Part shown: positions 1-41,064 of the stretch, one piece after another
Layout: every line of letters begins with the position of its first letter
Numbering within the stretch: the stretch's first letter is position 1
Source of the DNA: Escherichia phage EJP2
Strand: one strand, 5' to 3'
Length of the DNA: 64,000 nucleotides
Sequence record: OQ411014.1
The notes under the pieces: model-generated
The model's database searches: none
The model's input: only the letters and a program-made list of their open reading frames with translations
Told to the model about the DNA's origin: nothing
Made by a program: the position numbers and the translations under genes

Positions 1-379
1 TAGCAATGCACAAAACAGAAATCACCTGAATTCAGGTGAAAGTACTTCAAGCTATGGTTATTGGAAATATAACTTCGCTGGAGTATCATCGGATACTTTA
101 TACATTACGAACTATGTTCCGTCTGGAAATATCAGAATTGTCGATTCAGTACAACATTATGAATATTATGATATTGACACGGAAAAGCCAAGTCTGTATA
201 CTATATCCGATATCGTAATTAGAAATGAAAAGACATTGTTCAACATGGTATTTCCAACGACTACTAAACTGTTTTCGAAGGAATACATGAAGTTCACAAT
301 TCCATTGTCTCTGATTATGAACAACCAATAAGAACGCGGAGTTCTTATATAACATCAACTACCAAAGAGGTAATATAAA

Positions 380-1852
380 ATGCAAAACGTAAATTTCATC
401 CTAAACGCAGATAGTTACAAGCACTCTCATTTACTAATGATGAAAGAAGGTGTTCAAGCTCTTGAATCAAACATCATTGCTCGTAAACCATCTAAATTCA
501 CCAGTCATGTAGTTATGATGGGTCTTCAGATTTTCGTTCAGGAATATCTGGATATCACAATTACTGCGGCTGATATCGATGAAGCAGAGATTGAAACAAA
601 CGAACGTGGTGATGATTTTGACCGCGACTTCTGGGAACACATCGTGAATGTACACAAAGGTAAACTACCTTTACATATCCGTGCTATCCCTGAAGGTACA
701 GTAGTTCCAGTTGGTATGCCGTTGGTTCGCTCCTTCAGTACTGACCCACGTACTATGGTACTCGCTAGTTTCGTCGAAACTCAATTACAACGTGCAATCT
801 GGTTCCAAACTACTGTTGCATCTAATGCTCGCAGTATCAAGGAATTTCTTGCTGATACTATGGAACGTCATGCTGGTCATCGCTTTGTGGATTATCATCT
901 ACATAACTTCGGCTGTCGTGGTGCAAGTTCCTATGAAACAGCAATGCTCGCAGGTGTAGCTCATGCCGCTCTATTCAGTGGCTCTGACTGCCTATTAGCA
1001 AACCGTAGTATCAAATACTACTACAATACTACTAAACCATATGTTAGTAGTGTTATGGCGAGTGAACACAGTGCTACATGTTCTAACTCCGATGCAGACA
1101 AGCGTGATGATTCAGCAATGGCGTTGAAGATGGTTCGCCTATGGGAAAAGAAAGTAGATAAGTTCATTGCTAATGGTTCAGTTGGTGCACCCCCAATTGT
1201 TTCTGTAGTAATCGATACTTATGATGCTTATCGCTTTGTTCGTGAGTTCATCGGTACTCGTCTAAAATCTACAATCGAAGAGATTGCAGCTAAATGTCCA
1301 AGTGCTAAACTAGTAATGCGTCCTGATAGTGGTAATCCACTAACTATGCCAATCGAAATCGTATCTATCCTTATGGAGAAATTCGGTTCAGTACTGAATG
1401 CTAATGGCATGAAAGTACTTCCATCTTTCATTGGTGTTCTTCAGGGCGACGGAGTTTCAGAAAGTTCAATCCGTGAAATCGTCCACAACCTAGAGAAAAA
1501 GAACTACTCTCTAGAGAATCTAATCTTTGGTATGGGTGGTAAAAACTCCCACGTCGAAGGTGGTCGTGATGCATATTCTTTCGCCCAGAAAGGTTGTGCA
1601 CAGCAACTAGCTGATGGTACTTGGGAAGATTTGTTCAAAGATCCTATTACTGACGTTGGGAAAAAATCCCTTCGTGGTCGTGTAACTACTTACTTGTGCA
1701 AAGAAAGTGGGAAGATGATGGCTGAACGAATCGAACTACAAGAAGTAAATCCTTTCTTAGAAGATATGATGGTTGACATTTTTGTAAATGGTGATATCAT
1801 GAATCTAAGCTCTTTTGATGATGTACGTGCTCGTGCGAACAAGGGATTGTAA
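380..1852 (+). CDS. nadV: nicotinamide phosphoribosyltransferase (NadV/NAMPT family)
   Basis: 490 aa; motifs LNADSYKHSH, AIPEGTVVP, FGCRGASS, RPDSGNPL, LQGDGV match the NAMPT family as recalled; RBS aaagagg upstream. Confidence 0.9.
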   Translation: MQNVNFILNADSYKHSHLLMMKEGVQALESNIIARKPSKFTSHVVMMGLQIFVQEYLDITITAADIDEAEIETNERGDDFDRDFWEHIVNVHKGKLPLHIRAIPEGTVVPVGMPLVRSFSTDPRTMVLASFVETQLQRAIWFQTTVASNARSIKEFLADTMERHAGHRFVDYHLHNFGCRGASSYETAMLAGVAHAALFSGSDCLLANRSIKYYYNTTKPYVSSVMASEHSATCSNSDADKRDDSAMALKMVRLWEKKVDKFIANGSVGAPPIVSVVIDTYDAYRFVREFIGTRLKSTIEEIAAKCPSAKLVMRPDSGNPLTMPIEIVSILMEKFGSVLNANGMKVLPSFIGVLQGDGVSESSIREIVHNLEKKNYSLENLIFGMGGKNSHVEGGRDAYSFAQKGCAQQLADGTWEDLFKDPITDVGKKSLRGRVTTYLCKESGKMMAERIELQEVNPFLEDMMVDIFVNGDIMNLSSFDDVRARANKGL

Positions 1853-1857
1853 TATCA

Positions 1858-1885
1858 ATGGGGAGTCTTAGTACTCCCTTTTTTG
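1858..1885 (+). terminator. hairpin gggagt/actccc followed by T6
   Basis: inverted repeat plus T-tract directly after nadV stop. Confidence 0.6.
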
Positions 1886-1895
1886 CGAGGTTTAT

Positions 1896-2534
1896 ATGTG
1901 GTCTAAAGTAAAAGATAATCTAGATGCGTACATTATCCCACTACACGATGTGGTATGGCTACGAGATGAAGTACGTAAGGCAATGACCGAAGGTTATGCG
2001 TTTCCAGCAGAAGAAGATGAAATTCAAAAAGATGCATCAGTAGTTTCTGATGAAATGATTATCGGTTATCCAGATCCAGAAAATGAAAATATGTTCATGT
2101 TTGGATTCAAAGATGATGATTGTCTGGACGACCAAAGTATCATTGACCACATTACACATCGCTGTTGGGAAGATATTAGTGAAGCTGGTATTGTTTCATT
2201 TGGTGAAATGGAAAGTTTTTCAGCAGTTGTGTATAATGAAGATGTTCCAAATTTCCGTAAGCACAAGACAGAAGTGGATAACTTCCTAACTCATTTGATT
2301 GGTCGATCTATTGTTAGTGATGAGCCATCATTCCTCAATAACACTGCGGAATGTAAAGAATTCATCTTAGAACGATATGATTATGAAAATATGAAACGTA
2401 CTGCGACGAATAAGTGGGGCAACTTCAATTATCGTTTATTTGAAAATGATGAAGGAGATGTCGTGACAATCGTTACATACAATGCTAAACTGATCTCCTA
2501 CTATAACTTCAGATACAAAGACGAGGATCTATAA
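1896..2534 (+). CDS. hypothetical protein
   Basis: 212-aa ORF, gagg RBS, tight spacing with neighbours; no motif recognised. Confidence 0.5.
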   Translation: MWSKVKDNLDAYIIPLHDVVWLRDEVRKAMTEGYAFPAEEDEIQKDASVVSDEMIIGYPDPENENMFMFGFKDDDCLDDQSIIDHITHRCWEDISEAGIVSFGEMESFSAVVYNEDVPNFRKHKTEVDNFLTHLIGRSIVSDEPSFLNNTAECKEFILERYDYENMKRTATNKWGNFNYRLFENDEGDVVTIVTYNAKLISYYNFRYKDEDL

Positions 2535-2535
2535 A

Positions 2536-2748
2536 ATGGTTTTGACTTATCTTTTCATGTTCGGTATGTACGCAGTAACCACTGGTTGTGCATGGTTCCT
2601 GACTTCAATTACATTCATTGGTTGGGCCAATCGTGAAGGTAAAATCAAATACGGCTTGTGGTTCCGTGAGTTCAGTCCTTTTGTAGTACCACTATGGATT
2701 ACAACTATTGTAATTTATATTCTCATCCCAGTAGTATTCTTGGGTTGA
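2536..2748 (+). CDS. small hydrophobic (membrane) protein
   Basis: 70-aa ORF starting one nt after the upstream stop; two hydrophobic segments. Confidence 0.35.
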   Translation: MVLTYLFMFGMYAVTTGCAWFLTSITFIGWANREGKIKYGLWFREFSPFVVPLWITTIVIYILIPVVFLG

Positions 2749-2788
2749 CATTACAGTACTGTTCAAGATTTTCTAATAAGGATTATAT

Positions 2789-3391
2789 ATGACTTGTATT
2801 ATCGCTTTTACTGATGGTAAATCATCCTTCATCGCAGGTGACAAACTAGGTTCCAACGGCTTTACTAAATCAGTAATGGTTGAACCAAAAGTCTTTGAGA
2901 AAGAGTTTCATCGTGTTAGTACCAATGATGAAGGTACTGTGCGGACGCGTGAAACGATGGCACTCGGTTATACTACGTCATTTCGTATGGGACAACTTCT
3001 GTCTTACAATCTAGTACTGCCTGACCAAGATGCGAATCAATCCTTCAGTCAGTACCTGGTTCAGAAAGTAATTCCACTTATTCGTCATATGTTCAAAGAT
3101 GAATGGGGTGCACGTGATAGCTCACAAGATATTGGTGGTGGTCAGTTCATTATTCTGCATAACCACACTATCTACGAAGTTCAAGGTGACTTCTCAGTAC
3201 TGCAACCTAAGACACAAATTACTGCTGTAGGTTCAGGTACTTACCATGCAATTGCAGCTATGCAAGCACTACAAAGTGTTTCATCTGATACTAAGAAAGA
3301 TCTACTACATTACGTACCAACGATTTTTGATATTGTCAGTACTAATGTAACTTCAGTATCTGCTGAACATGATGTATTGCATTACAAATAA
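2789..3391 (+). CDS. HslV/proteasome-like Ntn-hydrolase peptidase
   Basis: N-terminus MTCIIAFTDGKSSFIAGD parallels HslV MTTIVSVRRNGHVVIAGD (Thr after Met); AVGSGTYHAIAAMQAL parallels HslV IGSGGPYAQAAARAL. Confidence 0.5.
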   Translation: MTCIIAFTDGKSSFIAGDKLGSNGFTKSVMVEPKVFEKEFHRVSTNDEGTVRTRETMALGYTTSFRMGQLLSYNLVLPDQDANQSFSQYLVQKVIPLIRHMFKDEWGARDSSQDIGGGQFIILHNHTIYEVQGDFSVLQPKTQITAVGSGTYHAIAAMQALQSVSSDTKKDLLHYVPTIFDIVSTNVTSVSAEHDVLHYK

Positions 3392-3582
3392 TGGTTGATA
3401 TATTTTTCATTGTAATGATGATGCTTGGTGTATTCGGGTTGATTGCAATTACCCGAATCACTGATAGACCATACACAGATAACATTGAACGCGTTTGTAT
3501 GTTTCTACTAAGTACTATAATGTTGGTTATCGTTGGTGTAGTAGGTTCTATGTTTGCAGAACTAATTCTAATTGCGTACTGA
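3391..3582 (+). CDS. small membrane protein
   Basis: 63-aa hydrophobic ORF, start overlaps upstream stop. Confidence 0.3.
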   Translation: MVDIFFIVMMMLGVFGLIAITRITDRPYTDNIERVCMFLLSTIMLVIVGVVGSMFAELILIAY

Positions 3583-3605
3583 TGTACGCTTTTTAAGGAG
3601 TACTT

Positions 3606-3839
3606 ATGGACTTAGCAGATTTGGTTTATGTTGTATCGTTAGTACTGTACGGTATTTGTATAGTACTGACTATGTTAGAATGGAGTACTTGGAGTGATGG
3701 TTTCAAAGAACTAAATGGTGAGTTTACCTCTAAATACTATGCAATTAGTTATTTTATCATGAAGTTAGGTATGATTGGAATGTATGGTATTTTGGGATAT
3801 CTATTCTACTTCTTACCTGAACATATGAGATTATTTTAG
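3606..3839 (+). CDS. small membrane protein
   Basis: 77-aa ORF with ggag RBS; hydrophobic segments. Confidence 0.35.
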   Translation: MDLADLVYVVSLVLYGICIVLTMLEWSTWSDGFKELNGEFTSKYYAISYFIMKLGMIGMYGILGYLFYFLPEHMRLF

Positions 3840-3849
3840 GAGATATAAA

Positions 3850-4281
3850 ATGGCAGGAAAAGGATATTGCAGCCTAAAACTTGATAAAGCACAAGCAAAG
3901 GAATTGAAACGGATTTTAAAAATCGGTGGCGTTGAATGCTTAGACCCTTCGGATTTGCATTGTACTTTAATGTACGATGAAAGTAATCCTAACATCAAAA
4001 TGCTCAAGAACACAAAGACTTATAAAGCTAAAGTAACTGGTGTTAGTAAATTGGGTGATGCGATTGTATTGGATTTGGAATCCCCTGGCATCAAGAAACG
4101 TCATCAGGAATTGAAGAATGCTGGTTATAAGCACTCATTCCCTGAATTGAAAATTCATATGAGCATCAACTACGATCCAAAAAGTACTGATAAGGATTTA
4201 CTAGAACTCTTTATCAAATTGAAGGGTATTCCTTCAGTACTGATATTTGGTAATGAAAAATTTGAATCTCTAAAGCCGTAA
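3850..4281 (+). CDS. 2H phosphoesterase-family protein (LigT/Acb1-like fold)
   Basis: two H-x-T/S-x motifs (HCTL near residue 37, HMSI near residue 113) at the spacing typical of 2H phosphoesterases; 143 aa. Confidence 0.5.
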   Translation: MAGKGYCSLKLDKAQAKELKRILKIGGVECLDPSDLHCTLMYDESNPNIKMLKNTKTYKAKVTGVSKLGDAIVLDLESPGIKKRHQELKNAGYKHSFPELKIHMSINYDPKSTDKDLLELFIKLKGIPSVLIFGNEKFESLKP

Positions 4282-4291
4282 GGAGTATATA

Positions 4292-5050
4292 ATGGACGTG
4301 AATAAATTTCTTGACAACAAAGGACAAAAGCGTCTGTTAGTACTAACTGGTGCGGGTTTCAGTGCGGAATCTGGAGTTAGTACATTTCGTGATGCAGAAG
4401 ATGCCCTATGGGAAGGTGTGAAGATTAACGATGTATGTAACATTGCGAGCTTAGGCTTTAAGTACGCACAAGTACATGCATTCTACAACACACTAAGAAC
4501 TATCATCAAGGACAAAGAGCCTAACGAAGCACACTATGAAATTAGCGTTATGGAGTCAATGTACGGGGATAACTTCCTACACATGACTGCTAATATCGAT
4601 GATTTATATGAGCGTGCTGGTGGCACTGCTATGCACCTTCATGGCAACATCAAAGAAGTCATTGAGAACTATTCAATGGCACATAACGACTTTACAGTAC
4701 TGGATGTTGGATATGAAGTTTATATTCCAAAGGAAGGTGTATTTGCTAAACCTAATGTAGTATTCATTGGTGAATCAGAGCGTTATGTGAATAACCAGCG
4801 TATTCCGTTGTATGAAGAACGAAATAAAGTACTGGCATCCTTGACAGACTTAGATACCGTTGTTATCATTGGTTCATCGGATACAATCCTGAAGTGGAGT
4901 TCGTTGGTTGGTTTAGGCACACCAGCTTATACCATCAACATCAACACAAGAAAGAATGACACTGACTGGGCGTTCGATAAGAAGATTTACAAGCCAGTAA
5001 CTAAAGCGTTATTGGAATTGAGGGAGTTAGTTCTTACACGGATGGGATAG
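4292..5050 (+). CDS. Sir2-family protein lacking the zinc ribbon
   Basis: GAGFSAESGVSTFR, TANIDDLYERAGG, HLHG, PNVVFIGES, VVIIGSS match sirtuin core motifs; no CxxC pairs after the HG motif. Confidence 0.7.
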   Translation: MDVNKFLDNKGQKRLLVLTGAGFSAESGVSTFRDAEDALWEGVKINDVCNIASLGFKYAQVHAFYNTLRTIIKDKEPNEAHYEISVMESMYGDNFLHMTANIDDLYERAGGTAMHLHGNIKEVIENYSMAHNDFTVLDVGYEVYIPKEGVFAKPNVVFIGESERYVNNQRIPLYEERNKVLASLTDLDTVVIIGSSDTILKWSSLVGLGTPAYTININTRKNDTDWAFDKKIYKPVTKALLELRELVLTRMG

Positions 5051-5059
5051 GAGTGAGTT

Positions 5060-5614
5060 ATGGATTTTACAGAGATACCATTCGGACAACGCAGTGAAAG
5101 ATTTGACTGTGCGTTCGTTTGGATCTACGCTAAGAATTGCACACCATACAAGGATTATCCATATAATGATATTCCTAACGTATCTTTAGTACTGACAGAG
5201 TTACGCTTTGATGGTCTAATGGGTGCGGTTGGTGGAGCAGTTGAGGATGATGATCCTTCATTGGAAGTGGCAGTGCAACGTGAAGCCTTAGAGGAAATAA
5301 ACTTTTCTCTTGACATTACTAATCTGAAACCGTTATTATCATTACGTTCCCCATACGGAGCACATAACCATAGTTTCTCGTACGAAGTACAGTACGATGA
5401 GCTACTAGAGATTCGGAACAACGCATACAAAGGTGCTCACTTCAGTGCTGAAAATGCGGGTGTAAATCTGATTCACGTATGTCGCTATACGAAGGGAAGA
5501 GGGAACGAATGTGGTTACAATAACATTCTTACACAGAATTTTATTGGCACATCCAAACTGGAACTAGAGCGTTTAGTTCATAATGAAAATTTACTAATAA
5601 ATTACCTTGCATAA
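5060..5614 (+). CDS. Nudix-like hydrolase (imperfect Nudix box)
   Basis: GGAVEDDDPSLEVAVQREALEEINF contains REALEE with altered spacing from the canonical Nudix box. Confidence 0.45.
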   Translation: MDFTEIPFGQRSERFDCAFVWIYAKNCTPYKDYPYNDIPNVSLVLTELRFDGLMGAVGGAVEDDDPSLEVAVQREALEEINFSLDITNLKPLLSLRSPYGAHNHSFSYEVQYDELLEIRNNAYKGAHFSAENAGVNLIHVCRYTKGRGNECGYNNILTQNFIGTSKLELERLVHNENLLINYLA

Positions 5615-5624
5615 AGGATAAAAT

Positions 5625-5957
5625 ATGTATAAGATGTTTATAGACGACCTTCGGGATGCAGAGAAGCATTACCCAAATGAAGGATTCATCGTCACAAGGA
5701 CTTACAATGAAGCTGTACAGTACGTACAAGAACATGGTCTACCTAGTTTTGTTTCATTCGACCATGACTTGGGCGACACTGACAGTACTGATGAGAAGAC
5801 TGGATATTCTTTTGCTAAGTTCCTCATCGAGTACATGATTGATAACGATTTGCGGGAACCGTTTGAGTACTTTATTCACAGTGCTAATCCAGTTGGTGCA
5901 GAGAATATCAAACAGTACTTGCAAAATGGGTTCAACTTTATCCAAGGGCAAGCATGA
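5625..5957 (+). CDS. hypothetical protein
   Basis: 110-aa ORF with aaggat RBS. Confidence 0.45.
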   Translation: MYKMFIDDLRDAEKHYPNEGFIVTRTYNEAVQYVQEHGLPSFVSFDHDLGDTDSTDEKTGYSFAKFLIEYMIDNDLREPFEYFIHSANPVGAENIKQYLQNGFNFIQGQA

Positions 5958-6244
5958 AAGTAATAACATTTATTCTGATTTTGATTGTTGTTGTTGGTAT
6001 TCGCCTTAAAATAGCGGAGAACCAATACAACACTGAAAGACTGAATATTACGAAAGAATCTGGAACAGTAGTTGCAACTGGACAATGCAACAAATACACT
6101 TGTGCTTACTCTGTAAAAACCTCTAGTGGTTCTACAGTGAACAGTACTGGTGACACTCCGGTAAGTCTCGGTCAAATCGTATACCGTGAATGCTGGGAAG
6201 AAAGGGTCAGGGGTCCGCGTTGTTACGTAGACTTTAGACCATAA
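5954..6244 (+). CDS. hypothetical protein with N-terminal signal or anchor
   Basis: 96 aa; hydrophobic N-terminus VITFILILIVVVG; ATGA start/stop overlap with upstream gene. Confidence 0.4.
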   Translation: MKVITFILILIVVVGIRLKIAENQYNTERLNITKESGTVVATGQCNKYTCAYSVKTSSGSTVNSTGDTPVSLGQIVYRECWEERVRGPRCYVDFRP

Positions 6245-6269
6245 AACACTATCATGAAAAGGGAATTTT

Positions 6270-7724
6270 ATGAAAAAATATGCTATTGATACAAACGTAC
6301 TTCTAAGCGATCCAAACGCAGCAACCGCTTTCAAAGGTGCTACAGTGGTTCTACCATTTACAGTACTGGAAGAAATGGACTCCATCAAGAGTCGTGGTGT
6401 TGACGTTAGCCGTGATGCACGTGTAGCAATTCGCAATATCAGTAACATCCTGGAAGACGCGTCTCATGAAGAGATTAGTACTACTGGGGTTGATATGTCC
6501 AAACTACATCCACATTTAGATTCCGACAGTCGTCTAATGATTGTTACATCTGAAGAAGCTGAAGCACTTCTACGTGTTGCAGGTATTGATAAGTCCGATG
6601 CTGAACTTACAAAAGTTGCTACACTAATGAACAGTACTGTACCGGATGACAAGATTATTCTTGTTGCTCTAGCTACAGAATCAGTACTGGTTACTCGTGA
6701 TATCAACATGCGTATCAAAGCTATGGCTTATGGTGTTGAAGTTCAGGACTATCGTAGTGATGTTACTATTTCCGATTCTGACCTACTACATATTGGGAAC
6801 CACAAACTAGAGTTTTCGTTCTGGGATACCATTGCGGATCGTGGTTTAGAAGTTTTCAGTACTAAAGAAGGTCGTAACACTTATCAACTAATTGCTAAAG
6901 ATGCAATTCAGGATCTACTACCAGAAAATCTATGCGTTGGTGACTATCTATATGATGACACTGATTTGCTAATGGTATATGATGGAGAAGGTGATCGTGA
7001 GTTCTCTGATGGTGAAGTTGATGACACAGTGTACTCCGTGTTCATTGATGTTGGTCAACACAGTGCAATGCGTACTAAGATTTGGGATATCAAAGCTAAG
7101 AACGTGAAACAAGCAATGGCAATCAACAGTATTCTTGACCCTAATGTTCACTTGACAGTACTGTTAGGTTCTGCGGGTACAGGTAAGACTTTGATTACTC
7201 TAGCATGTGCACTAGAACTAACATTAGAGAAGCGTCAGTACGATAAAGTTATTTTCTCTAAAACCCAAGACTCACAGTTTGATGAAATTGGTTTCTTACC
7301 AGGAACCGAAATGGAAAAAATGCTTCCGAATTGTGGACCTGCACTGGATGCATTGGAATTCCTTCACAAAGATGATGCTAACCCTCAAGGTTCAATTGAA
7401 GAAATCATCAAACGTAATGTTGTACAATTCAAAGCACTGAACTTTATTCGTGGACGTTCGTTTACCAATACAATTCTAGTTGTTGATGAATTCCAAAACA
7501 TTACTCCGGCTCAAGCTAAAACTATCTTGACACGGGCAGGAATGAACTGTAAAGTTATCATCATGGGTAACTTAGCACAGATTGATAGTAAGTTTATCAG
7601 TTCTGTAAACAGCGGTTTGACCTATGTAGTTGAGAAGTTCAAAGATTGGGAAGGTTGTCGTATCATCGAACTCGAAGGTGTTGTACGTTCTGCACTAGCT
7701 GAATTCGCTGAAGAAAATATGTAA
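6270..7724 (+). CDS. phoH: PIN-domain / PhoH-like ATPase fusion
   Basis: N-terminal YAIDTNVLLSDP (PIN-like); Walker A LLGSAGTGKT; Walker B-like VVDEFQNI. Confidence 0.8.
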   Translation: MKKYAIDTNVLLSDPNAATAFKGATVVLPFTVLEEMDSIKSRGVDVSRDARVAIRNISNILEDASHEEISTTGVDMSKLHPHLDSDSRLMIVTSEEAEALLRVAGIDKSDAELTKVATLMNSTVPDDKIILVALATESVLVTRDINMRIKAMAYGVEVQDYRSDVTISDSDLLHIGNHKLEFSFWDTIADRGLEVFSTKEGRNTYQLIAKDAIQDLLPENLCVGDYLYDDTDLLMVYDGEGDREFSDGEVDDTVYSVFIDVGQHSAMRTKIWDIKAKNVKQAMAINSILDPNVHLTVLLGSAGTGKTLITLACALELTLEKRQYDKVIFSKTQDSQFDEIGFLPGTEMEKMLPNCGPALDALEFLHKDDANPQGSIEEIIKRNVVQFKALNFIRGRSFTNTILVVDEFQNITPAQAKTILTRAGMNCKVIIMGNLAQIDSKFISSVNSGLTYVVEKFKDWEGCRIIELEGVVRSALAEFAEENM

Positions 7725-7731
7725 TATATTG

Positions 7732-7758
7732 GGGGAGTTTCAATACTCCCCATTCATT
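7732..7758 (+). terminator. hairpin ggggagt/actcccc with interrupted T-tract
   Basis: inverted repeat directly after the phoH stop. Confidence 0.45.
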
Positions 7759-7971
7759 TGGACAGTACTATGAGTTTAGATTTGAACTTAGTTCGACACG
7801 CACTGTCACGGTTTGATTGGGCTGATACATTATTTTCGTTAGCTGAACAATCATTATCAACGGTTCCGGCTGATAACACTGACAGGCTTAAGCGTTTGTC
7901 GTTGTTATACAAAACACAAGCCTTAGTGAATCATGACAGAATTTTGAATAGAAGAAAAATGTTATAAATTA

Positions 7972-8001
7972 TTGAGACAAAACTCAATACTATGATATAA
8001 T
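7972..8001 (+). promoter_or_regulatory. sigma70-like promoter TTGAGA-N18-TATAAT with TGA extended -10
   Basis: ttgaga at 7972-7977, tgatataat ending 8001; member of the recurring promoter family. Confidence 0.55.
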
Positions 8002-8031
8002 AGATACATCAACAACAAAGAGGAAATAAAC

Positions 8032-8280
8032 ATGGAACAGAATAAAAAAGAAGCTCAAAACTCCCGTCGCGTAGCAATGGATAAACTATCCGCTCTAACA
8101 GAACTCAAGAAACTACGTCGTGACGGTATCCTAACTCGTCAACAGTTCCGTCGTGAAGTATGGGACAAAGGTCTACAAACTGGCGTGAAAGGTGTTCCAG
8201 AAATCACTGCTTTCGAAGTTGTGAAAGTAGATGGTAAGAAAGCACTAACCGTTCAAGTTCGTCCTTGGGGTCGTATCTGA
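8032..8280 (+). CDS. hypothetical basic protein
   Basis: 82-aa ORF, RBS agagga, downstream of promoter and upstream of strong terminator. Confidence 0.5.
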   Translation: MEQNKKEAQNSRRVAMDKLSALTELKKLRRDGILTRQQFRREVWDKGLQTGVKGVPEITAFEVVKVDGKKALTVQVRPWGRI

Positions 8281-8368
8281 AACGGGCATATTCTAAACAA
8301 TTTTGATAAATAACATTACAAGAATAATAATAAAGTTATTTAACTCCATGTTGTTTAGTTATACTTTC

Positions 8369-8397
8369 CAGCCCACTAATTTAGTGGGCTTTTTTTA
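8369..8397 (+). terminator. hairpin agcccact/agtgggct followed by T7
   Basis: perfect 8-bp stem, 5-nt loop, T-tract. Confidence 0.8.
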
Positions 8398-8409
8398 TGT
8401 GGTGACTAT

Positions 8410-9108
8410 ATGAATTTCGAACAGACAGTACTGAAAGCTGTTAGAGAACACGTAATATACTTCAGTGGTTACAGTACTTTTAGGGGGTATTACATCGTTG
8501 GTTCATTCATGCAATGTAAACGTTGTATCTTCATGGAACCTAAAGATATAGATGTAATTATTGTAACCAATGAGAAAGAAGAAATAGGTGAAAAGGAATA
8601 TAGTTTCTTCATTGAAGAAGCTGATAACATTGAAGTTAATGTTACAGTACTGACACCTGTTGAAAACCTAAATTCTATAATCAGACTCGAACCAAAGTAC
8701 TTTGATTCATTCTGTTCATCTAAGTCTCTTGAATGGGACATTGATGGTATTCGTAATATTTCTAATTCTGAAATCAGGTCTAAGGTCATGAAGTTCTCTG
8801 ACTTAGCTTTCAACAAAGGCAAAAAGAAACTCACCATAGAAAAAGATTACGATGAAGAATTAGGACTCAAGAATATTTGTCATGCTTATCGTTTTCTGAT
8901 TGATGCTATCCGGTTCTATTACCCATCTACACCTATGTTAGAGAAAGAGATGATGGACTTAGGTTATAGCAAGTACCGCAATCGGGTTTATAAAATTTAC
9001 AAAAATACGCAAGGTACACTTGACGATAAGTACCAAGCTATGGTAAAGTACGCTAAACCTGAATACAACAGGATGTGTTCAGAGTTTAGGAAATTGTTCC
9101 CTCGATAA
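8410..9108 (+). CDS. hypothetical protein
   Basis: 232-aa ORF; weak GS...DID nucleotidyltransferase-like pattern only. Confidence 0.45.
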   Translation: MNFEQTVLKAVREHVIYFSGYSTFRGYYIVGSFMQCKRCIFMEPKDIDVIIVTNEKEEIGEKEYSFFIEEADNIEVNVTVLTPVENLNSIIRLEPKYFDSFCSSKSLEWDIDGIRNISNSEIRSKVMKFSDLAFNKGKKKLTIEKDYDEELGLKNICHAYRFLIDAIRFYYPSTPMLEKEMMDLGYSKYRNRVYKIYKNTQGTLDDKYQAMVKYAKPEYNRMCSEFRKLFPR

Positions 9109-9119
9109 AAGGAGTTTAT

Positions 9120-9410
9120 ATGCAATACAGACCACTATACGACCATGTTCTTGCTAAACAGATTGTTCATGAAGCTAAGAGTTCTTTTGGTATCATCCTG
9201 AACAGTACTGGTGTAGAAGAGACAACTACTGCTACTGTTGTTGCAGTTGGTACTGGGTCGAAGAATAGCCTAGGGAAAGTTATTCCAGTTGGTGTAAACG
9301 TAGGTGATGTGGTATCATTCAGTCCTGATGCTGCTGTTCATCGTGTTACACTAGATGGTACTGAATATCTTGTTATGCGTAAAGATTGCATCTTAGGCGT
9401 ACAGGAATAA
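9120..9410 (+). CDS. GroES-like co-chaperonin (Cpn10)
   Basis: RPLYDHVLAK, AVGTG, VNVGDVV, ILGVQE align with E. coli GroES RPLHDRVIVK, AVGNG, VKVGDIV, ILAIVE. Confidence 0.75.
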   Translation: MQYRPLYDHVLAKQIVHEAKSSFGIILNSTGVEETTTATVVAVGTGSKNSLGKVIPVGVNVGDVVSFSPDAAVHRVTLDGTEYLVMRKDCILGVQE

Positions 9411-9411
9411 C

Positions 9412-9445
9412 ATAAAGGGAGCCATTATGGTTCCCTATTTTTATG
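9412..9445 (+). terminator. hairpin gggagccat/atggttccc followed by T-rich tract
   Basis: inverted repeat with one G-U pair after co-chaperonin gene. Confidence 0.55.
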
Positions 9446-9456
9446 AGGTCAATATA

Positions 9457-9798
9457 ATGAACGTGAATACCAGTACTGAACGATTGAAAATTTACGAAAC
9501 ACTAGAACGATATCTTGATATTGATGAAGTTAGTCCACAATATATTATTGACATTTTACAAAAACACGTCGATAATAATCCAGGAAAATGCCTTGTATGT
9601 TATTGCAACGAAGATATGTTAGAAATAACTGCTTCACACTTGGAAACTGATGAAGAATATAACGCCAGACAAAACTTTATCCAACAGCAGCAAGAACGAA
9701 AAGAAACTGAAAAACACATGAAAGCACTGATGAAGAAGTCATCACTCAGTACTGAAGAAAAAGCACTCCTAATCAAATACATTGAGGAAAACAAATGA
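9457..9798 (+). CDS. hypothetical protein
   Basis: start moved to ATG 9457 (gagg RBS, downstream of terminator); coiled-coil-like C-terminus. Confidence 0.45.
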   Translation: MNVNTSTERLKIYETLERYLDIDEVSPQYIIDILQKHVDNNPGKCLVCYCNEDMLEITASHLETDEEYNARQNFIQQQQERKETEKHMKALMKKSSLSTEEKALLIKYIEENK

Positions 9799-10568
9799 AT
9801 CGTGAAAAGATGCTTTATCATGCAAAAGAAAAGGGTTGTTTGAATTTTGATATCTACACAATGAAACGTGAAACACGTGATAACCTGGACTTCCTTTTGG
9901 ATGGTGACTTTTTAGATTTCAAAACAGACAGTGCATTCGGTAATGATCGCAACAGTAAATGGCAGGAATACGTAATCACCAATAGGGGTATTGCATTACT
10001 GGGAGTGTATCGTCTTGAGTATGCACATCTCAATGAACGTGATACTGAAAAACATATCGGTCGCATCGAACAACTTCGTGAATTACTTGATGTTGTTGAT
10101 GTAAAGCTAACTGATATTGAATATGCATTTACGAATAACCAACGTAAATCAGTGAACTACATGAACACCAACTATCCTACTGGTGCAAGTACATTAGTTC
10201 ACAAGATAAAAGAACAAGAAAAAAGTGTTGACACAACTCCCAATGATGAGCTATCATTACTCTCGTTGTTTGAGTTCAGTACTGAATTAGGTAAAAAAGG
10301 TTCCAGTACTAAACGCTCTGACGATTATGTCCTGAAGAAGTGTATGGAAGAACTTGGTGAGTTAGCTCTTGAAGTTACTATCAGTCAAGGTGAATCCTAC
10401 AAAGAACCAGGCAAAGATGGTGTCAAAGGTGAAGCAGTAGATTTAGCGATTTGTGCACTTGACATGTTCGCATTACAATGTAATAATATGAGTCCAGACG
10501 AGATAGAACGTGAGTTCTTGACTTATATGACAACTAAAGTGAATAAGTGGAGAAATACTCTAAAATGA
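9795..10568 (+). CDS. hypothetical protein
   Basis: 257-aa ORF; the C-terminal stretch ELGELALEV...GEAVDLAICALDM is acidic but matches no family motif recognised here. Confidence 0.45.
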   Translation: MNREKMLYHAKEKGCLNFDIYTMKRETRDNLDFLLDGDFLDFKTDSAFGNDRNSKWQEYVITNRGIALLGVYRLEYAHLNERDTEKHIGRIEQLRELLDVVDVKLTDIEYAFTNNQRKSVNYMNTNYPTGASTLVHKIKEQEKSVDTTPNDELSLLSLFEFSTELGKKGSSTKRSDDYVLKKCMEELGELALEVTISQGESYKEPGKDGVKGEAVDLAICALDMFALQCNNMSPDEIEREFLTYMTTKVNKWRNTLK

Positions 10569-10843
10569 GTAACACTAACAGTACTATCAAAGTTGAATGG
10601 TATGATAAAGTTACTGAAGTTCGTGCTCAGTGGGAGAATAATCATTTTATCTCTGACGGCGGGTTAGCTGGGCGAATCTACTTCAGTGATGAGTTCAATC
10701 AAGAATGGAGTGCTGGTGAACCTAAGTATTCAGTACTCCACGATGATGGACAATCTTCAGTAGTAGAGTTCGATGAAGAATGTGAGGAATTTGTTTCTGT
10801 TCAATCACATTTACCAATTATCTATTACAACAAAGAGAAATAA
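10565..10843 (+). CDS. hypothetical protein
   Basis: ATGA overlap with upstream stop; 92 aa. Confidence 0.45.
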   Translation: MSNTNSTIKVEWYDKVTEVRAQWENNHFISDGGLAGRIYFSDEFNQEWSAGEPKYSVLHDDGQSSVVEFDEECEEFVSVQSHLPIIYYNKEK

Positions 10844-11037
10844 TGAAAAAAGTTCTTGCAGTACTGCTATCTACTATGATAGTATCTTGTTCTGCTCCTG
10901 ATGTTAAACCTGGTGAAGCATACCAGGTTTATCCTGGACTGGTACAATTACAAATGCAGGGTGCAACGTACTCTTGTCATGAAATTCACGAAGATAATAC
11001 TCTATCTTTAATGTGTCGCAAAAACCGAATGAGGTAA
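10843..11037 (+). CDS. small putative lipoprotein
   Basis: signal peptide ending in lipobox-like IVSC; 64 aa. Confidence 0.4.
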   Translation: MKKVLAVLLSTMIVSCSAPDVKPGEAYQVYPGLVQLQMQGATYSCHEIHEDNTLSLMCRKNRMR

Positions 11038-11043
11038 TATAAC

Positions 11044-11376
11044 ATGAAAACTTCCGTACTAATTGCAGTTGATACCAGTGGTGAATACAACAACGAACAC
11101 ACCAAGAGTCGAGTACTGGACATTCTTCGTAACCTGTGTCCTCGTTCTAATGTTGATTTGATTACTTTCGATGCTGATGGTATTCTGCAATGGGATATTC
11201 CGGTGTTCCTTGAAAATAACATCGTCGGTTACGAAACCAAATCCGATTTCATGAGCATCCTTGAATATATGGATGAAACTGATTATGACCGTCAATTCAT
11301 TTTAGTTGAAAATTTTGATGGACTTCAAGACACAATTGATGTATATTCTCTGAAAACACACGGCTTTGTAGCCTAA
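11044..11376 (+). CDS. hypothetical protein
   Basis: 110-aa ORF, RBS gagg. Confidence 0.45.
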   Translation: MKTSVLIAVDTSGEYNNEHTKSRVLDILRNLCPRSNVDLITFDADGILQWDIPVFLENNIVGYETKSDFMSILEYMDETDYDRQFILVENFDGLQDTIDVYSLKTHGFVA

Positions 11377-11420
11377 AAAATAAACAACTTAGTAAATAAT
11401 TTCATATAGGAAAACAATAA

Positions 11421-11594
11421 ATGAGCAATACAAATAAACCCCTACTGTGTGGTCACTGTTCCAAAACACTGGGTGAACATAATTCCGTTGACGCAGGGTG
11501 TCCAATTCAAGTAGGGAAACTGGTCGTGGCTTTCAGTAAATCAAAGAAATTCACTGAACATGCTCCTATTGCTAAAATGGAATTCTTTTACTAA
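11421..11594 (+). CDS. small Cys-containing protein (below ORF-track cutoff)
   Basis: 57-aa ORF translated by hand; CGHC and GC cysteine pairs; agga RBS. Confidence 0.3.
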   Translation: MSNTNKPLLCGHCSKTLGEHNSVDAGCPIQVGKLVVAFSKSKKFTEHAPIAKMEFFY

Positions 11595-11741
11595 CTAACA
11601 AATGAAGTACTATAAGCCGTGCCGCTGGGTAATATCAGCATAAGACCGTACGCGACAGAAGCTAATACAGAGAGTCCCTACTCGGTATACCATCCTCTCT
11701 GGGCGATAGTACTTCACCCTTTAATTACAAGGAGTGCAGTG

Positions 11742-12380
11742 ATGAAAGACTTCAAAGATATGACCACATCAGATAAGTACTGGTACATCATCGAACATCC
11801 GGCGTTCATGAATGATGAGTTCGTTTCAGTAAACATCTGTGTTGAACCACAAAACGTATGCCCCATTACTGAACGTATCGAGAATTACAAACCACTGAAT
11901 ACTAAAGTTCAGTACTGGATAGAGTTCTGTCCTCCGTATAAAGATTCGTACACTAATAACAAATTCGTACAATCACACGATACTGATTGTGATTGTGGTG
12001 GTTGGACGTATGAAGAAGCAATCGATAATCTCTTCGATTTGGTTATCGAGAAGTACGGCTCTTACACCGACGAAGACCTAAAAACTAAAATGGGTGAAGT
12101 TTTTGGGACTACCAAACCAGTAATTTGGAAACGCAGCGTTGAGGATCGTGTCCAGGCACTACTCAAACAGCGTACATCAAATAAAGTAGAAGACCCGTTG
12201 GAATTCACTTTCTTAGAAAAAGATATCAAAAATCTAAAAGGTACACTCCATGCCTTGACTGAACATCGAAAGACTGCTAATATAGATTCATACAGTGAAA
12301 TTGACGATTGCATTCAGAATTGTAAAGTAGATATATCTATTCTGGAAGCATCATTAAAAATCGGAATGATGATTGAATGA
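11742..12380 (+). CDS. hypothetical protein
   Basis: ATG at 11742 with aaggag RBS preferred over the GTG at 11619. Confidence 0.5.
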   Translation: MKDFKDMTTSDKYWYIIEHPAFMNDEFVSVNICVEPQNVCPITERIENYKPLNTKVQYWIEFCPPYKDSYTNNKFVQSHDTDCDCGGWTYEEAIDNLFDLVIEKYGSYTDEDLKTKMGEVFGTTKPVIWKRSVEDRVQALLKQRTSNKVEDPLEFTFLEKDIKNLKGTLHALTEHRKTANIDSYSEIDDCIQNCKVDISILEASLKIGMMIE

Positions 12381-12751
12381 ATCCCAAATTAGAACGATTG
12401 GTAAATGAATTACGTACCCTGCCACCTTTGGAGTTAGATGAAGGTGCAGGGCGTAGACGTTATCGTGTTATTGCACGTGCACTTGATAAGCGTGGACGTG
12501 TGATTTGTACCAGAACTAACACGTATAAAACGTCACATCCAGTACAGAAGCATTTCGCGTTAAAGGTTGGTCGTCCTGATGCAATCTTTTTGCACGCTGA
12601 AATTTCAGTACTACTCTCTGCAAAACAGGATGTTCATACACTCCTTATTGCTAGAATCGATAGTAATGGTAATCCCGCTCTCGCTAAACCTTGCGAGATT
12701 TGTTCTATCGCAATTCAGCAATACGGTGTAAAAGAAATTATCCATACATAA
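12377..12751 (+). CDS. CDA-fold zinc-dependent nucleotide deaminase (dCMP deaminase-like)
   Basis: HAE and PCEIC zinc-binding/catalytic motifs at deaminase spacing; 124 aa. Confidence 0.55.
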   Translation: MNPKLERLVNELRTLPPLELDEGAGRRRYRVIARALDKRGRVICTRTNTYKTSHPVQKHFALKVGRPDAIFLHAEISVLLSAKQDVHTLLIARIDSNGNPALAKPCEICSIAIQQYGVKEIIHT

Positions 12752-12760
12752 GGAAGTACA

Positions 12761-13318
12761 ATGACTATTATCGTGAATTTAGTAGGTGGTCCGTGCTGTG
12801 GAAAAAGTACTACTGCTGCTGGACTATTCAGTACTATGAAACTTCAAACAACTAACAAGGTTGAACTTGTTACTGAAGTTATCAAAGACCATGTGTACGA
12901 TGAGAACAAAGGTGCAATGCAAGACCAGGTTCTTCTTACTGCTGAACAGAATCACCGATTCAAACGTTTAGATGGTAAAGTTGATTTTGTAATCTCGGAC
13001 GCTTCCCTTTTGAACGCAATCGTGTATAATCAGTTCTACAATCAAAACAAAGATATCAGTACTGAACTATCTCGTAAACTATTCGAGAAGTACGATAACG
13101 TTGTATTCTTCCTTCCACGTAAGCCTCAATATGATGCATACGGACGTACACAGTCAGAAGAAGATGCACGTTTCATCGATGAACTTTTCGAGAGTGTGTT
13201 CTGGGAATATTCTATTCCTTTCATTGATATGCGTGAATATACTCACGATGTTCTTCCAGAAAAGATTCTTGAGAAACTTCAAGAGAAATTTGGCAATACT
13301 GTAACCCTACGAGGCTAA
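12761..13318 (+). CDS. P-loop NTPase/kinase (AAA_28/NadR-like)
   Basis: Walker A GGPCCGKST at N-terminus; 185 aa. Confidence 0.5.
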   Translation: MTIIVNLVGGPCCGKSTTAAGLFSTMKLQTTNKVELVTEVIKDHVYDENKGAMQDQVLLTAEQNHRFKRLDGKVDFVISDASLLNAIVYNQFYNQNKDISTELSRKLFEKYDNVVFFLPRKPQYDAYGRTQSEEDARFIDELFESVFWEYSIPFIDMREYTHDVLPEKILEKLQEKFGNTVTLRG

Positions 13319-13319
13319 T

Positions 13320-13502
13320 ATGAAAACAATCTTCAGTAAAGAGTACGATGGAGAAGATCTTTACGATCTAAATCGTGATATCAGTGAAGCACTGGATGAA
13401 CGATTCAATACGTTAGTAGGTTCAATCCCTACTGATGAAAATGGTATTCAAGAAGGTAAATTCATTGTAACAGTAAAGTGGACTGCACACGAGGATGACT
13501 AA
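13320..13502 (+). CDS. hypothetical protein
   Basis: 60-aa ORF in tight operon spacing. Confidence 0.4.
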   Translation: MKTIFSKEYDGEDLYDLNRDISEALDERFNTLVGSIPTDENGIQEGKFIVTVKWTAHEDD

Positions 13503-13945
13503 TGCTTCAGTACTGTGATGGTATAGAGGTTAGTCACTATATAGAATCCAGAATACACAAGTATGATTTCTTAGGTTTTCTACCATTGATTGATGTGGAC
13601 GGTCTTGAGTACTATACTGTTGAAAACAAAGGTAGATTGAGTGATATTTTTGCACGTGTTTCTCCTGTTATTGGTGAGGAATCGGACATGATTACTGAAC
13701 TTGAGTATTGGTTCACTCAACCGATTCCCCAAGATGCACGAGAAGAACGAAAGTTATATCATGAATATTATCGTGATGAATTTATAAAACGCTTGCAAGA
13801 ATGGAAATACTGTGTTAGATTCTTAGGGTGCGACGACGCTGATTACTTCATGCGTTTCAAAAACAAGGAACATGCTCTGGAGTTCCTAAATACCGTCAGT
13901 TCGTTTGACGAAATATATAATCATGAACATTCAATGATGTGGTAA
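13502..13945 (+). CDS. hypothetical protein
   Basis: 147-aa ORF, start overlaps upstream stop. Confidence 0.5.
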   Translation: MLQYCDGIEVSHYIESRIHKYDFLGFLPLIDVDGLEYYTVENKGRLSDIFARVSPVIGEESDMITELEYWFTQPIPQDAREERKLYHEYYRDEFIKRLQEWKYCVRFLGCDDADYFMRFKNKEHALEFLNTVSSFDEIYNHEHSMMW

Positions 13946-13955
13946 GGAAAATATA

Positions 13956-14369
13956 ATGGCTAATACTATTGCAATGAAAAACACAACCACTGGTGAAATC
14001 CGTAATGGTTTCACTGGTTTCTCTTGGACAACCCTGTTCTTCTGGGCTTTCCCAGCAATCTTCCGAATGGACTTTGTTACATTCATCGTGGTGTTCCTAG
14101 TAACACTAGTACTGTCAGCTACTACCATGTTCGGTGGTGCTATCCTAGTAATCGTATGGGCGTTCCTGTACAACCGTTACTACACCATTAGTCTTATCCG
14201 AAAGGGTTACAAGTTCAATGGTACTCACGAAGAGAACAAAGCAGCAGCAATGATTCTCAGGATTGAACTAAATGCTAATAACTGTCTAACTACTGAACCA
14301 GTACCACAAACTCCAGCACCTGCACCAGTTGCACAACCTGAAGTTCAGGGAGAACCAGTACAGAAATAA
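13956..14369 (+). CDS. membrane protein with Pro/Ala/Gln-rich C-terminal tail
   Basis: two hydrophobic helices; 137 aa. Confidence 0.5.
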   Translation: MANTIAMKNTTTGEIRNGFTGFSWTTLFFWAFPAIFRMDFVTFIVVFLVTLVLSATTMFGGAILVIVWAFLYNRYYTISLIRKGYKFNGTHEENKAAAMILRIELNANNCLTTEPVPQTPAPAPVAQPEVQGEPVQK

Positions 14370-14380
14370 TCCTCTCTAAG

Positions 14381-14406
14381 AGCGTCCTTTATGGACGCTT
14401 TTTTCG
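14381..14406 (+). terminator. hairpin agcgtcc/ggacgct followed by T7
   Basis: perfect 7-bp stem plus T-tract. Confidence 0.8.
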
Positions 14407-16799: not shown

Positions 16800-16803
16800 A
16801 TAT

Positions 16804-41032: not shown

Positions 41033-41064
41033 ATAAGTATCTGAGATATGTAAGAGATAAAAAT

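Follow-up and report, generated by a model that had tools for sequence, protein, structure and literature searches.

Three juxtaposed gene units around the sirtuin gene of Escherichia phage EJP2 and the possible part of one of them in RNA-end healing

The DNA analysed here, called the window, is a stretch of 64,000 nucleotides (nt) from Escherichia phage EJP2 (sequence record OQ411014.1), and the follow-up concerned the block around positions 380-7724, which holds twelve genes, all on the + strand. A preliminary description had taken positions 380-5614 as a single NAD-centred cluster of NadV, an HslV-like peptidase, a 2H phosphoesterase, a zinc-less Sir2 protein (sirtuin) and a Nudix hydrolase. 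These five gene calls proved correct in position and strand, as judged by profile searches, motifs and structure models, and the homology searches left the Sir2, Nudix and 2H assignments standing (matches to PF02146, PF22327 and PF23474, respectively). The limits of the block, however, had been misdrawn, since the genes for a cyclic-phosphate-processing receiver-like domain (cREC), a membrane-anchored protein of 96 amino acids (aa), here p96, and PIN-PhoH2 had been missed on the right, and NatV lies beyond the left edge of the window. We concluded that the block is a juxtaposition of three units, namely an NAD+ salvage unit, a variable islet and a tightly coupled run of genes that includes Sir2, and not one new pathway. 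As to function, the reading that we favour, with a confidence somewhat short of even, is that the coupled run carries out RNA-end healing at the expense of NAD+, while the adjoining salvage genes would supply NAD+, recycle nicotinamide and also serve in counter-defence.

The combination of genes in the coupled run is already on record. Iyer, Burroughs, Anantharaman & Aravind (2022) described a sirtuin, a 2H protein, a Nudix protein, cREC and PIN together in Serratia phage BF (AQW88637.1; PMC9503650 section 3.7.3) and predicted NAD-dependent RNA repair, in which the sirtuin clade acts like KptA, removing RNA 2'-phosphates with NAD+, and the accessory enzymes open cyclic phosphates or degrade ADP-ribose cyclic phosphate; rV5-type and HAD-type sirtuin variants were described in the same work (PMC9503650). 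The cREC domain had been defined by the same group (PMC7824862). In the window the five components of this type-1 neighbourhood are found in the order 2H-Sir2-Nudix-cREC-(p96)-PIN/PhoH2, and Eneladusvirus BF (locus L001), of the same Rak2-like lineage, aligns gene by gene at 46-78% aa identity. In contrast to phage BF, EJP2 has Nudix and cREC as two distinct genes, and an HslV-type peptidase and small membrane proteins are inserted upstream. The locus is thus a further example of a described neighbourhood whose function is predicted; a known salvage pathway lies at its flank, accessory genes interrupt it, and the proposal that the combination differs from known pathways was not sustained. What is added here is the NUDT16 type of the Nudix protein, the clade-wide loss of zinc from the sirtuin, the mapped unit boundaries and the accessory status of the HslV-like gene; otherwise it is another well-preserved example.

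Boundaries of the coupled run and the NAD+ salvage genes

EJP2 is a Rak2-like jumbo phage, whose closest deposited relative is Erwinia phage Hallingskeid (about 72-80% aa identity for the conserved block genes); a Logan metagenome contig, L017, has 94-99% nt identity to the window. Counts out of ten given below refer to the window and nine representative Rak2-like phages, compared by tblastn with the window proteins and by their annotations; these relatives were sampled about 9 kb to each side of the matched gene, and further gene copies elsewhere in those genomes are possible. The features of the salvage unit and the coupled run are as follows.

2-331, + strand: end of a conserved hypothetical protein of 179 aa (its C-terminal 109 aa), cut by the left edge of the window (match to L017)
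380-1852, + strand: NadV, nicotinamide phosphoribosyltransferase (PF04095, 3.5e-27; PF18127, 1e-13; phrog_448, 1.7e-129)
1860-1885, + strand: terminator-like hairpin, GGGGAGT-N6-ACTCCCT then T6, directly after the NadV stop codon
3606-3839, + strand: 77-aa predicted membrane protein (tm77), first gene of the coupled run (from its translation; no family match)
3850-4281, + strand: 2H phosphoesterase of the Acb1 family, 143 aa (PF23474, 63.8 bits against a cut-off of 27; phrog_755, 2e-29)
4292-5050, + strand: zinc-less sirtuin of the phage sirtuin clade, CobB-derived (PF02146, 1.1e-19)
5060-5614, + strand: NUDT16-like Nudix hydrolase (PF22327, 2.6e-17, 63.7 bits against a cut-off of 27)
5625-5957, + strand: cREC (PF20274, 6.1e-26, 91.4 bits against a cut-off of 27)
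5954-6244, + strand: p96, membrane-anchored at the N-terminus and with four cysteines in the C-terminal portion (no family match)
6270-7724, + strand: PIN-PhoH2, a PIN endoribonuclease joined to a PhoH-type RNA helicase ATPase (PF13638, 1.3e-21; PF02562, 3.9e-43)
7732-7760, + strand: terminator-like hairpin, GGGGAGT-N6-ACTCCCC, with the stem of the post-NadV hairpin, just after the PIN-PhoH2 stop codon

The order of the coupled run is therefore tm77, 2H, Sir2, NUDT16-like Nudix, cREC, p96 and PIN-PhoH2. Spacers of 9-10 nt separate the genes from tm77 through cREC, and the stop codons lie inside or adjoin the Shine-Dalgarno sequence of the next gene (TAGGAG, TAAGGAG, TAGGAGTG and TAAAGGA), that of tm77 overlapping the Shine-Dalgarno sequence of the 2H gene. 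The cREC and p96 genes overlap by 4 nt, and 25 nt separate p96 from PhoH2. This arrangement suggests that the run is translationally coupled. Of the two features stressed previously, tight spacing holds for tm77 through cREC, whereas shared orientation is uninformative because the + strand carries nearly every open reading frame (ORF) of at least 100 aa across the 64 kb.

The stem GGGAGT-N6-ACTCCC occurs exactly twice in the 64 kb (1861-1878 and 7733-7750), with 0.03 occurrences expected, and the two same-stem hairpins bracket the variable islet and the Sir2 run. Among 17 loci compared, the stem sequence is shared only with the near-identical contig L017; Hallingskeid and RaK2 have hairpins of other sequence at the equivalent post-NadV and post-PhoH2 positions. 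An additional hairpin (3574-3589), followed by a T run, precedes the tm77 gene. Since terminator-like hairpins lie between NadV and the Sir2 run in the window and in two divergent relatives, the two were taken as separate units. These sequence patterns point to two transcription units, one probably running from NatV to NadV and the second ending with PhoH2. The coupled unit extends to about position 7751 and not 5614.

A single operon from NadV to Nudix was ruled out by the post-NadV hairpins of the window and two relatives and by phage 121Q, which has the Sir2-Nudix-cREC trio without NadV at the site. On the same grounds the suggested single variant NAD pathway was not supported.

The NadV protein contains both expected domains, NAMPT_N and NAPRTase (PF18127 and PF04095), shares 76-80% aa identity with NadV of related jumbo phages and scores 403.4 bits against NCBIfam PRK09198, just under the cut-off of 405. 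It is present in nine of the ten Rak2-like phages and is missing at this site in 121Q. Its usual partner NatV is outside the window, but the ORF at the left edge is identical in 108 of 109 aa to the C-terminus of an L017 gene (3805-4344, 179 aa) that lies directly 3' of NatV (CTP_transf_like plus NUDIX, 357 aa; a bifunctional NMNAT-Nudix protein), and both NatV and NadV are complete in L017. The order NatV, small gene, NadV is kept in every relative that has NadV; NatV stands two genes upstream of NadV in L017 and in eight of the nine GenBank relatives, the exception being 121Q, which has no NadV at the site. Because the left-edge ORF matches the L017 gene directly following NatV, the pair is almost certainly complete in EJP2 as well, with NatV ending, by this comparison, about 0.2 kb beyond the left edge.

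These two genes correspond to NAD+ reconstitution pathway 2 (NARP2; Nampt/NadV plus Nmnat/NatV), which was reported by Osterman et al. from Vibrio phage KVP40, was shown with the KVP40 genes to defeat Thoeris and DSR2, and over-produces NAD+ even in cells without a defence system (10.1101/2024.02.11.579819). To this extent the description of the block as centred on NAD and ADP-ribose, with NadV belonging to an established counter-defence pathway, was right. The likeness to NARP2 consists in the NAMPT_N and NAPRTase domains of NadV and in the NMNAT-Nudix gene two genes upstream in L017 and the NadV-bearing relatives. On the other hand, the window NadV has only about 27-29% aa identity to KVP40-type and other phage NadV proteins, and only in the Rak2-like lineage do such salvage genes stand next to a sirtuin operon.

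Some differences between relatives were seen around the salvage genes. In RaK2 an HNH endonuclease occupies the middle position between NatV and NadV. The identity of the window to L017 is 94.4% over positions 1-1884, across NadV, and 99.1-99.3% over 1906-14610, and L017 has an extra 306-aa gene (DUF723/DUF5889-like) exactly at the post-NadV junction. From these sequences, this looks like a footprint of recombination or of a homing endonuclease around the NAD salvage genes.

Enzymes of the coupled run and their conservation

The sirtuin has E. coli CobB as its closest solved structure (1S5P/6RXJ, about 5e-24), and its nearest relatives outside the phage clade are cellular CobB-type deacylases (33-36% identity). 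The residues of the NAD-binding GAGxS...FR motif and the catalytic Asn, Asp and His (G20-A-G22, S24, F32-R33, N101, D103 and H117) are invariant or nearly so. An AlphaFold2 (AF2) model of high predicted reliability (pLDDT 93) matched 6RXQ/1S5P in Foldseek at E values of about 1e-17 to 1e-16, with template-modelling (TM) scores of 0.78/0.87 and a root-mean-square deviation of about 3 Å; the model superposes best on CobB-peptide complexes, and its top 50 structural matches are all deacylases. Thus, in identity (about 31-35%), catalytic residues and predicted fold the protein resembles CobB and the class III enzymes. It differs from CobB in that the zinc-binding cysteines are gone, with a GYE segment in their place, in that the YxxR motif is altered (YNTLR), and in a 9-residue insertion specific to Rak2-like phage sirtuins.

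To judge the extent of the zinc loss, the window sirtuin was aligned with 12 other phage sirtuins, covering Rak2-like, KVP40, rV5-like, T5-like and phi92-like phages. The zinc cysteines of CobB have no counterpart in any of them, and a conserved segment containing GYE stands where the zinc ribbon was. Because every aligned phage sirtuin is without these cysteines, the zinc loss is, on this alignment, a trait of the whole phage sirtuin clade and not of the EJP2 gene alone. The family was found in 991 of 50,697 phage records.

The sirtuin gave no match to the PADLOC defence models at E<=0.01, and no defence NADase was among its top 50 structural matches. A defence-type Sir2 NADase (ThsA, DSR1/2 or SIR2-HerA) was ruled out by this null result together with the CobB-like sequence and fold.

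In the 2H protein the catalytic motifs read H37-C-T39 and H103-M-S105 and align to the motifs of Acb1 of Erwinia phage FBB1, which is also the best match in the Protein Data Bank (PDB; 7T26, 3.8e-4, alignment spanning residues 16-109). Serine in place of threonine in the second motif is allowed within the 2H superfamily. The protein resembles Acb1 (T4 gp57B; FBB1) in its size, its 2H signature with an HxT/HxS tetrad, its Pfam score and its best PDB match. It differs from Acb1 in that the second motif is HxS and not HxT, in the pairwise E value to FBB1 Acb1, which reaches only 3.8e-4, and in the location of its gene directly upstream of a sirtuin operon. The key residues of Acb1, which comprise the base-stacking aromatics, an adenine-contacting glutamate and a C-terminal lid, are Y12, W74, F107, W147 and E141 (PMC9117128); the window protein has a phenylalanine and lacks any tryptophan at its C-terminus. 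Acb1 degrades the signals of CBASS, a system of antiphage signalling based on cyclic oligonucleotides, and cleavage of cyclic nucleotides has been demonstrated (PMC9117128), while a 2025 preprint reports that substrate specificity differs among viral 2H enzymes (10.1101/2025.08.21.671373). Judging from family membership and motifs, the 2H protein may, instead of or in addition to a part in RNA healing, act as Acb1 on CBASS signals. Its gene lies just upstream of Sir2 in eight of the ten phages and is missing in 121Q and RaK2; homologues were found in 224 phage records.

The Nudix hydrolase aligns along its whole length with PDB entries of NUDT16/X29 (7e-8 to 3e-6). Its Nudix box, G59-x5-D65-x8-R74-E75-A-L-E78-E79, has the same unusual spacing as that of NUDT16, with REALEE intact and aligned to RELREE. 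The full-length Pfam Nudt16-like domain and the identical spacing and acidic residues of the box thus agree with NUDT16 and Xenopus X29; what sets the phage protein apart is the low identity (E values of 1e-6 to 1e-8), an asparagine for the last glycine of the box and frequent fusion to cREC. The NUDT16-type enzymes that have been characterised process RNA caps (deNADding, decapping) and macromolecule-bound ADP-ribose, and the identity of the protein, as judged by homology, would suit a substrate attached to RNA or to some other macromolecule. NUDT16-like Nudix proteins are rare among phages, being present in only 72 of the 50,697 records, nearly all of them Rak2-like, the weakest match being NudE of Aeromonas phage PX29. 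A word-indexed homologue search returned close Rak2-like relatives only, and an exhaustive HMMER search gave 201 cluster representatives among 1.84 billion proteins. Three distant Nudt16-like homologues (P0339, P0361 and P0398) are fusions with Ham1 (an inosine triphosphatase, ITPase), HD_4 and ankyrin repeats; the fusion with Ham1 recalls the activity of NUDT16 as an inosine diphosphatase.

The cREC protein has acidic residues at D7-D8 and D46/D48. Nudix and cREC form one polypeptide in five of the ten Rak2-like phages and in about half of 41 metagenomic homologues, and are separate genes in the window, 7t3, 121Q, RaK2 and Hallingskeid. An example of a natural fusion is gp120 of GAP32. This fusion suggests that the two may act successively on one ADP-ribose-phosphate species. 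Downstream, p96 stands between cREC and PhoH2 in all ten phages. PIN-PhoH2, likewise present in 10/10, matches the NCBIfam family 'RNA 5'-3' helicase PhoH2' at 3.4e-44, below the equivalog cut-off.

The series Sir2-Nudix-cREC-p96-PIN/PhoH2 is invariant in the ten phages. Even 121Q, with neither NadV nor 2H at the site, keeps Sir2-Nudix-cREC, and flanking variable genes come and go while the core stays intact. Linkages of its members to RNA-repair genes were confirmed in other phages, both as RNA ligase-cREC-Sir2 and as Sir2-HAD_SAK. In the rV5-like Vequintavirus ECP26 the row consists of a calcineurin-like phosphoesterase, a P-loop kinase, an Rnl1 RNA ligase, cREC and Sir2, the cREC (PF20274, 1.1e-13) being positions 6672-7022 of the compared locus (L011), which lie directly upstream of Sir2 and carry the mistaken annotation of a second portion of 'RNA ligase 1 and tail attachment protein'. 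A Pfam search with the 102-aa ORF of the rV5-like phages gave no match; the cREC there is the ORF upstream of Sir2. T5-like phage IME178 has an RNA-repair phosphatase, HAD_SAK_2, after Sir2, and in Aeromonas phage 65 cREC adjoins a tRNA nucleotidyltransferase. The gene context of the Tunturi_5 'nudix hydrolase' matching cREC was uninformative.

In the window itself, genes related to RNA repair and ADP-ribose are found 18-37 kb downstream of the Sir2 run.

23721-24968: RlaP nucleotidyltransferase ('RNA repair pathway' family)
33992-35308: RNA ligase (PHA02142 OB and RNA_ligase domains)
39892-41001: CCA-adding enzyme
41023-41742: Nudix-glutaredoxin fusion
42351-42851: Macro-domain protein (Hallingskeid homologue annotated 'phosphatase')

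As RlaP, the RNA ligase and the CCA-adding enzyme are encoded there, EJP2 is equipped for RNA repair at a distance from the sirtuin run. The Nudix-glutaredoxin fusion and the Macro-domain protein lie about 36 kb from that run; removal of the phosphate from ADP-ribose 1''-phosphate, an activity of Macro domains, would be the step after cREC. No tRNA genes were found in the 64-kb window.

Possible functions of the coupled run

Starting from what the sequences show, namely which genes are present, their catalytic motifs, conservation and fusions, and the boundaries of the units, we propose substrates and a direction of metabolite flow for RNA-end healing. RNA cut by metal-independent nucleases would bear a 2',3'-cyclic phosphate, and the 2H protein or cREC would open this cyclic end. 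The zinc-less sirtuin might then move ADP-ribose from NAD+ to the terminal phosphate of the RNA, in the manner of KptA/Tpt1, with release of nicotinamide, and cREC and the NUDT16-like Nudix enzyme would break the resulting ADP-ribose (cyclic) phosphate product or adduct down to mononucleotides. PIN-PhoH2 could contribute unwinding or trimming of RNA, and ligase and CCA-adding enzyme would come from the genes 29-35 kb downstream. The NARP2 unit would rebuild NAD+ from nicotinamide and phosphoribosyl pyrophosphate (PRPP), so recycling the nicotinamide that the sirtuin releases, and would independently offset host defences that deplete NAD+. As in the Tpt1/KptA pathway, NAD+ would be spent on an RNA terminal phosphate and an ADP-ribose (cyclic) phosphate by-product degraded, and a Macro protein and an RNA ligase are present elsewhere in the window. 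In contrast to that pathway, the proposed transferase is a Rossmann-fold sirtuin and not a protein of the ADP-ribosyltransferase (ART) fold, and the clean-up would fall to cREC and Nudix rather than to a cyclic phosphodiesterase and a Macro protein; the likeness is one of proposed function only, not of homology.

A more specific version, which we think unlikely as it stands, is that the sirtuin ADP-ribosylates the RNA terminal phosphate, which would make it the first sirtuin acting on RNA, and forms with NARP2 a closed NAD+ cycle. In such a cycle the nicotinamide set free in the sirtuin reaction would be taken up again by NadV, ADP-ribose cyclic phosphate would be converted by cREC and the NUDT16-like Nudix into AMP and ribose 1,5-bisphosphate, and from the latter a host ribose-1,5-bisphosphokinase of the PhnN type could make PRPP, which NadV also uses as a substrate. 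In this way RNA repair would proceed at no net cost in NAD+, even under NAD-depleting attack. Should RNA-end healing prove true, the NAD-dependent enzymes of RNA repair would include a sirtuin besides Tpt1/KptA, and large phages would be seen to couple RNA healing to an NAD+ supply of their own, which is relevant to surviving tRNA-cleaving and NAD-depleting defences.

Several points weigh against RNA-end healing. In both sequence and predicted fold the sirtuin is nearest to the deacylases CobB, Sir2Af and SIRT5, the residues for deacylation are all kept, and none of its sequence features specifically indicates an RNA substrate. The 2H protein sits in the Acb1 family, whose demonstrated role is the degradation of cyclic nucleotides (PMC9117128), and in KVP40-type Vibrio phages, found in both the 2H and the Sir2 match lists, the two genes are far apart. 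Three distant Nudt16-like genes (P0285, P0286 and P0288) have no Sir2, cREC or RNA-repair neighbours, and the fusion with Ham1 suggests, from domain composition, nucleotide-pool sanitation in part of the Nudt16-like family. No RNA ligase or kinase is adjacent to the run in EJP2, the ligase being 29 kb away. Experimental work on the phage sirtuin clade, the NUDT16-like Nudix or cREC did not turn up in our literature search, and the DruSM1 knockout screen concerns other genes. Finally, gene order in Rak2-like genomes is shared for tens of kilobases to either side in all relatives, and for this reason synteny within the group is weak evidence alone.

This last point could be taken to mean that there is no functional unit at all and that the genes, each acting alone, are neighbours through Rak2-like collinearity, as the preserved order on both sides and the common orientation of nearly all genes would permit. 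We give this hardly any credence. Because within-group synteny is weak, it is the Nudix-cREC fusion, seen in many genomes, and the recurrence in unrelated phages, such as the cREC-Sir2 adjacency in Vequintavirus, that carry weight; the signals above chance are conserved adjacency, these fusions and the 9-10 nt spacers with stop codons overlapping the following Shine-Dalgarno sequence, and the variable neighbours change while the core remains. Very improbable, too, is that the NUDT16-like Nudix strips NAD (or FAD or dephospho-CoA) caps from RNA, built up through NAD+ raised by NARP2, while nicotinamide nucleotides, whether set free or still joined to RNA, are handled by the sirtuin and cREC. 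The homology to NUDT16, with its deNADding and decapping activities, would suit this, as would the overproduction of NAD+ by NARP2 without any defence present (10.1101/2024.02.11.579819), but the trio persists in 121Q with no NadV at the site, the parts given to the sirtuin and cREC are vague, and the cap substrate is purely proposed.

Of the other explanations, the one with the strongest claim, although we still hold it unlikely, does without RNA: the sirtuin would be an NAD+-dependent protein lysine deacylase acting on host or phage acylation, Nudix and cREC would clear O-acyl-ADP-ribose, and NadV/NatV would remove inhibitory nicotinamide and restore NAD+. Nudix enzymes are known to hydrolyse O-acetyl-ADP-ribose, and the best sequence matches of the sirtuin (CobB and cellular 'NAD-dependent deacylase' proteins), the superposition of its model on CobB-peptide complexes and its conserved catalytic residues (His, Asn and Asp), FGE loop and NAD motifs are what a deacylase would be expected to show. 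However, the zinc module that shapes the peptide cleft is lost clade-wide in favour of the GYE segment, and the YxxR of CobB/SIRT5 reads YNTLR. Deacylation also leaves unexplained why, in three phage lineages unrelated to one another, RNA ligase, kinase, HAD_SAK, cREC and PIN-PhoH2 repeatedly appear as neighbours, and clearance of O-acyl-ADP-ribose is normally the work of Macro domains, none of which is adjacent. We regard as improbable a counter-defence module, a possibility raised in the preliminary description. In such a module 2H/Acb1 would cleave CBASS oligonucleotides, Nudix and cREC would degrade Thoeris-type glycocyclic ADP-ribose (gcADPR), ADP-ribose (ADPR)-1''-phosphate or similar species, and NadV/NatV would rebuild NAD+. 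This reading retains its force for two components, namely the 2H protein, which passes the Pfam Acb1 threshold with its catalytic tetrad and belongs to a family with a counter-defence role of its own (PMC9117128), and NARP2, which beats Thoeris and DSR2 (10.1101/2024.02.11.579819). Counter-defence by phage phosphatases whose substrate is ADPR-1''-phosphate has newly been reported (10.64898/2026.01.28.702374), and it has been predicted that cREC and Nudix process derivatives of ADP-ribose (PMC7824862, PMC9503650). For the Sir2/Nudix/cREC trio, by contrast, it is the less supported reading: it offers no role for an NAD+-consuming sirtuin or for PIN-PhoH2, the invariant partners of Nudix-cREC; 2H is missing in two of the ten phages that keep the remainder; in other phages the sirtuin is linked to RNA ligase and HAD_SAK, which suggests RNA; and the literature search gave no anti-defence annotation of, or experiment on, the trio.

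The variable islet and other genes of the region

Between the two other units lies the islet, which is variable and is not a conserved partner of either. It contains the following genes.

1896-2534, + strand: 212-aa protein (phrog_36508 only)
2536-2748, + strand: 70-aa predicted membrane protein (hydrophobic translation; no Pfam or PHROG match)
2789-3391, + strand: N-terminal threonine peptidase of the HslV/proteasome-beta type, 200 aa (phrog_1040, 9e-21; family profile; AF2 model)
3391-3582, + strand: 63-aa predicted membrane protein (from its translation; weak similarity in Hallingskeid only; no family match)

Hallingskeid and RaK2 encode homologues of the 212-aa protein elsewhere; the regions sampled in the remaining seven phages yielded none. 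The 70-aa membrane protein gave no tblastn match in the nine sampled GenBank relatives and is present in L017.

The HslV-like protein gave no match in the Pfam scan. In a 42-sequence alignment of its family, T2, D18, K34 and G148-S-G150 are invariant, the first three corresponding to Thr1/Asp17/Lys33 of HslV after removal of the initiator methionine. The family profile matches PDB HslV at 2.8e-8, and for the AF2 model (pLDDT 93.7) the top Foldseek matches are HslV/ClpQ, BPH and Anbu. From these residues and the predicted fold, the protein looks like an active threonine peptidase. It shares with HslV (ClpQ), BPH and Anbu the invariant Thr1/Asp17/Lys33 and GSG and a fold that agrees; it differs from them in its identity of only about 16-20%, in its patchy occurrence among related phages and in that no HslU-type partner was identified in the block. 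Among ORFs of at least about 60 aa in positions 1-12751, the left-edge fragment excluded, no HslU-type match was found, the sole P-loop ATPase there being PhoH2. The gene is near the site in only three of the ten phages (the window, 7t3 and 121Q). With this distribution in the sampled regions of about 9 kb on each side, the HslV-like peptidase was ruled out as a core member, and its inclusion in the proposed combination was not upheld.

Two further observations concern genes to the right of the coupled run. In L017 a 318-aa protein with a C-terminal WGR domain is encoded at 15986-16942 and is absent at the equivalent window position, about 10568-11044, a further gene by which these near-identical phages differ; the WGR domain is known from poly(ADP-ribose) polymerases (PARPs). 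A 124-aa ORF of the window (12377-12751) has a sub-threshold match to cytidine/dCMP deaminases (23.2 bits, with a cut-off of 25), and the relatives annotate a second dCMP deaminase there.

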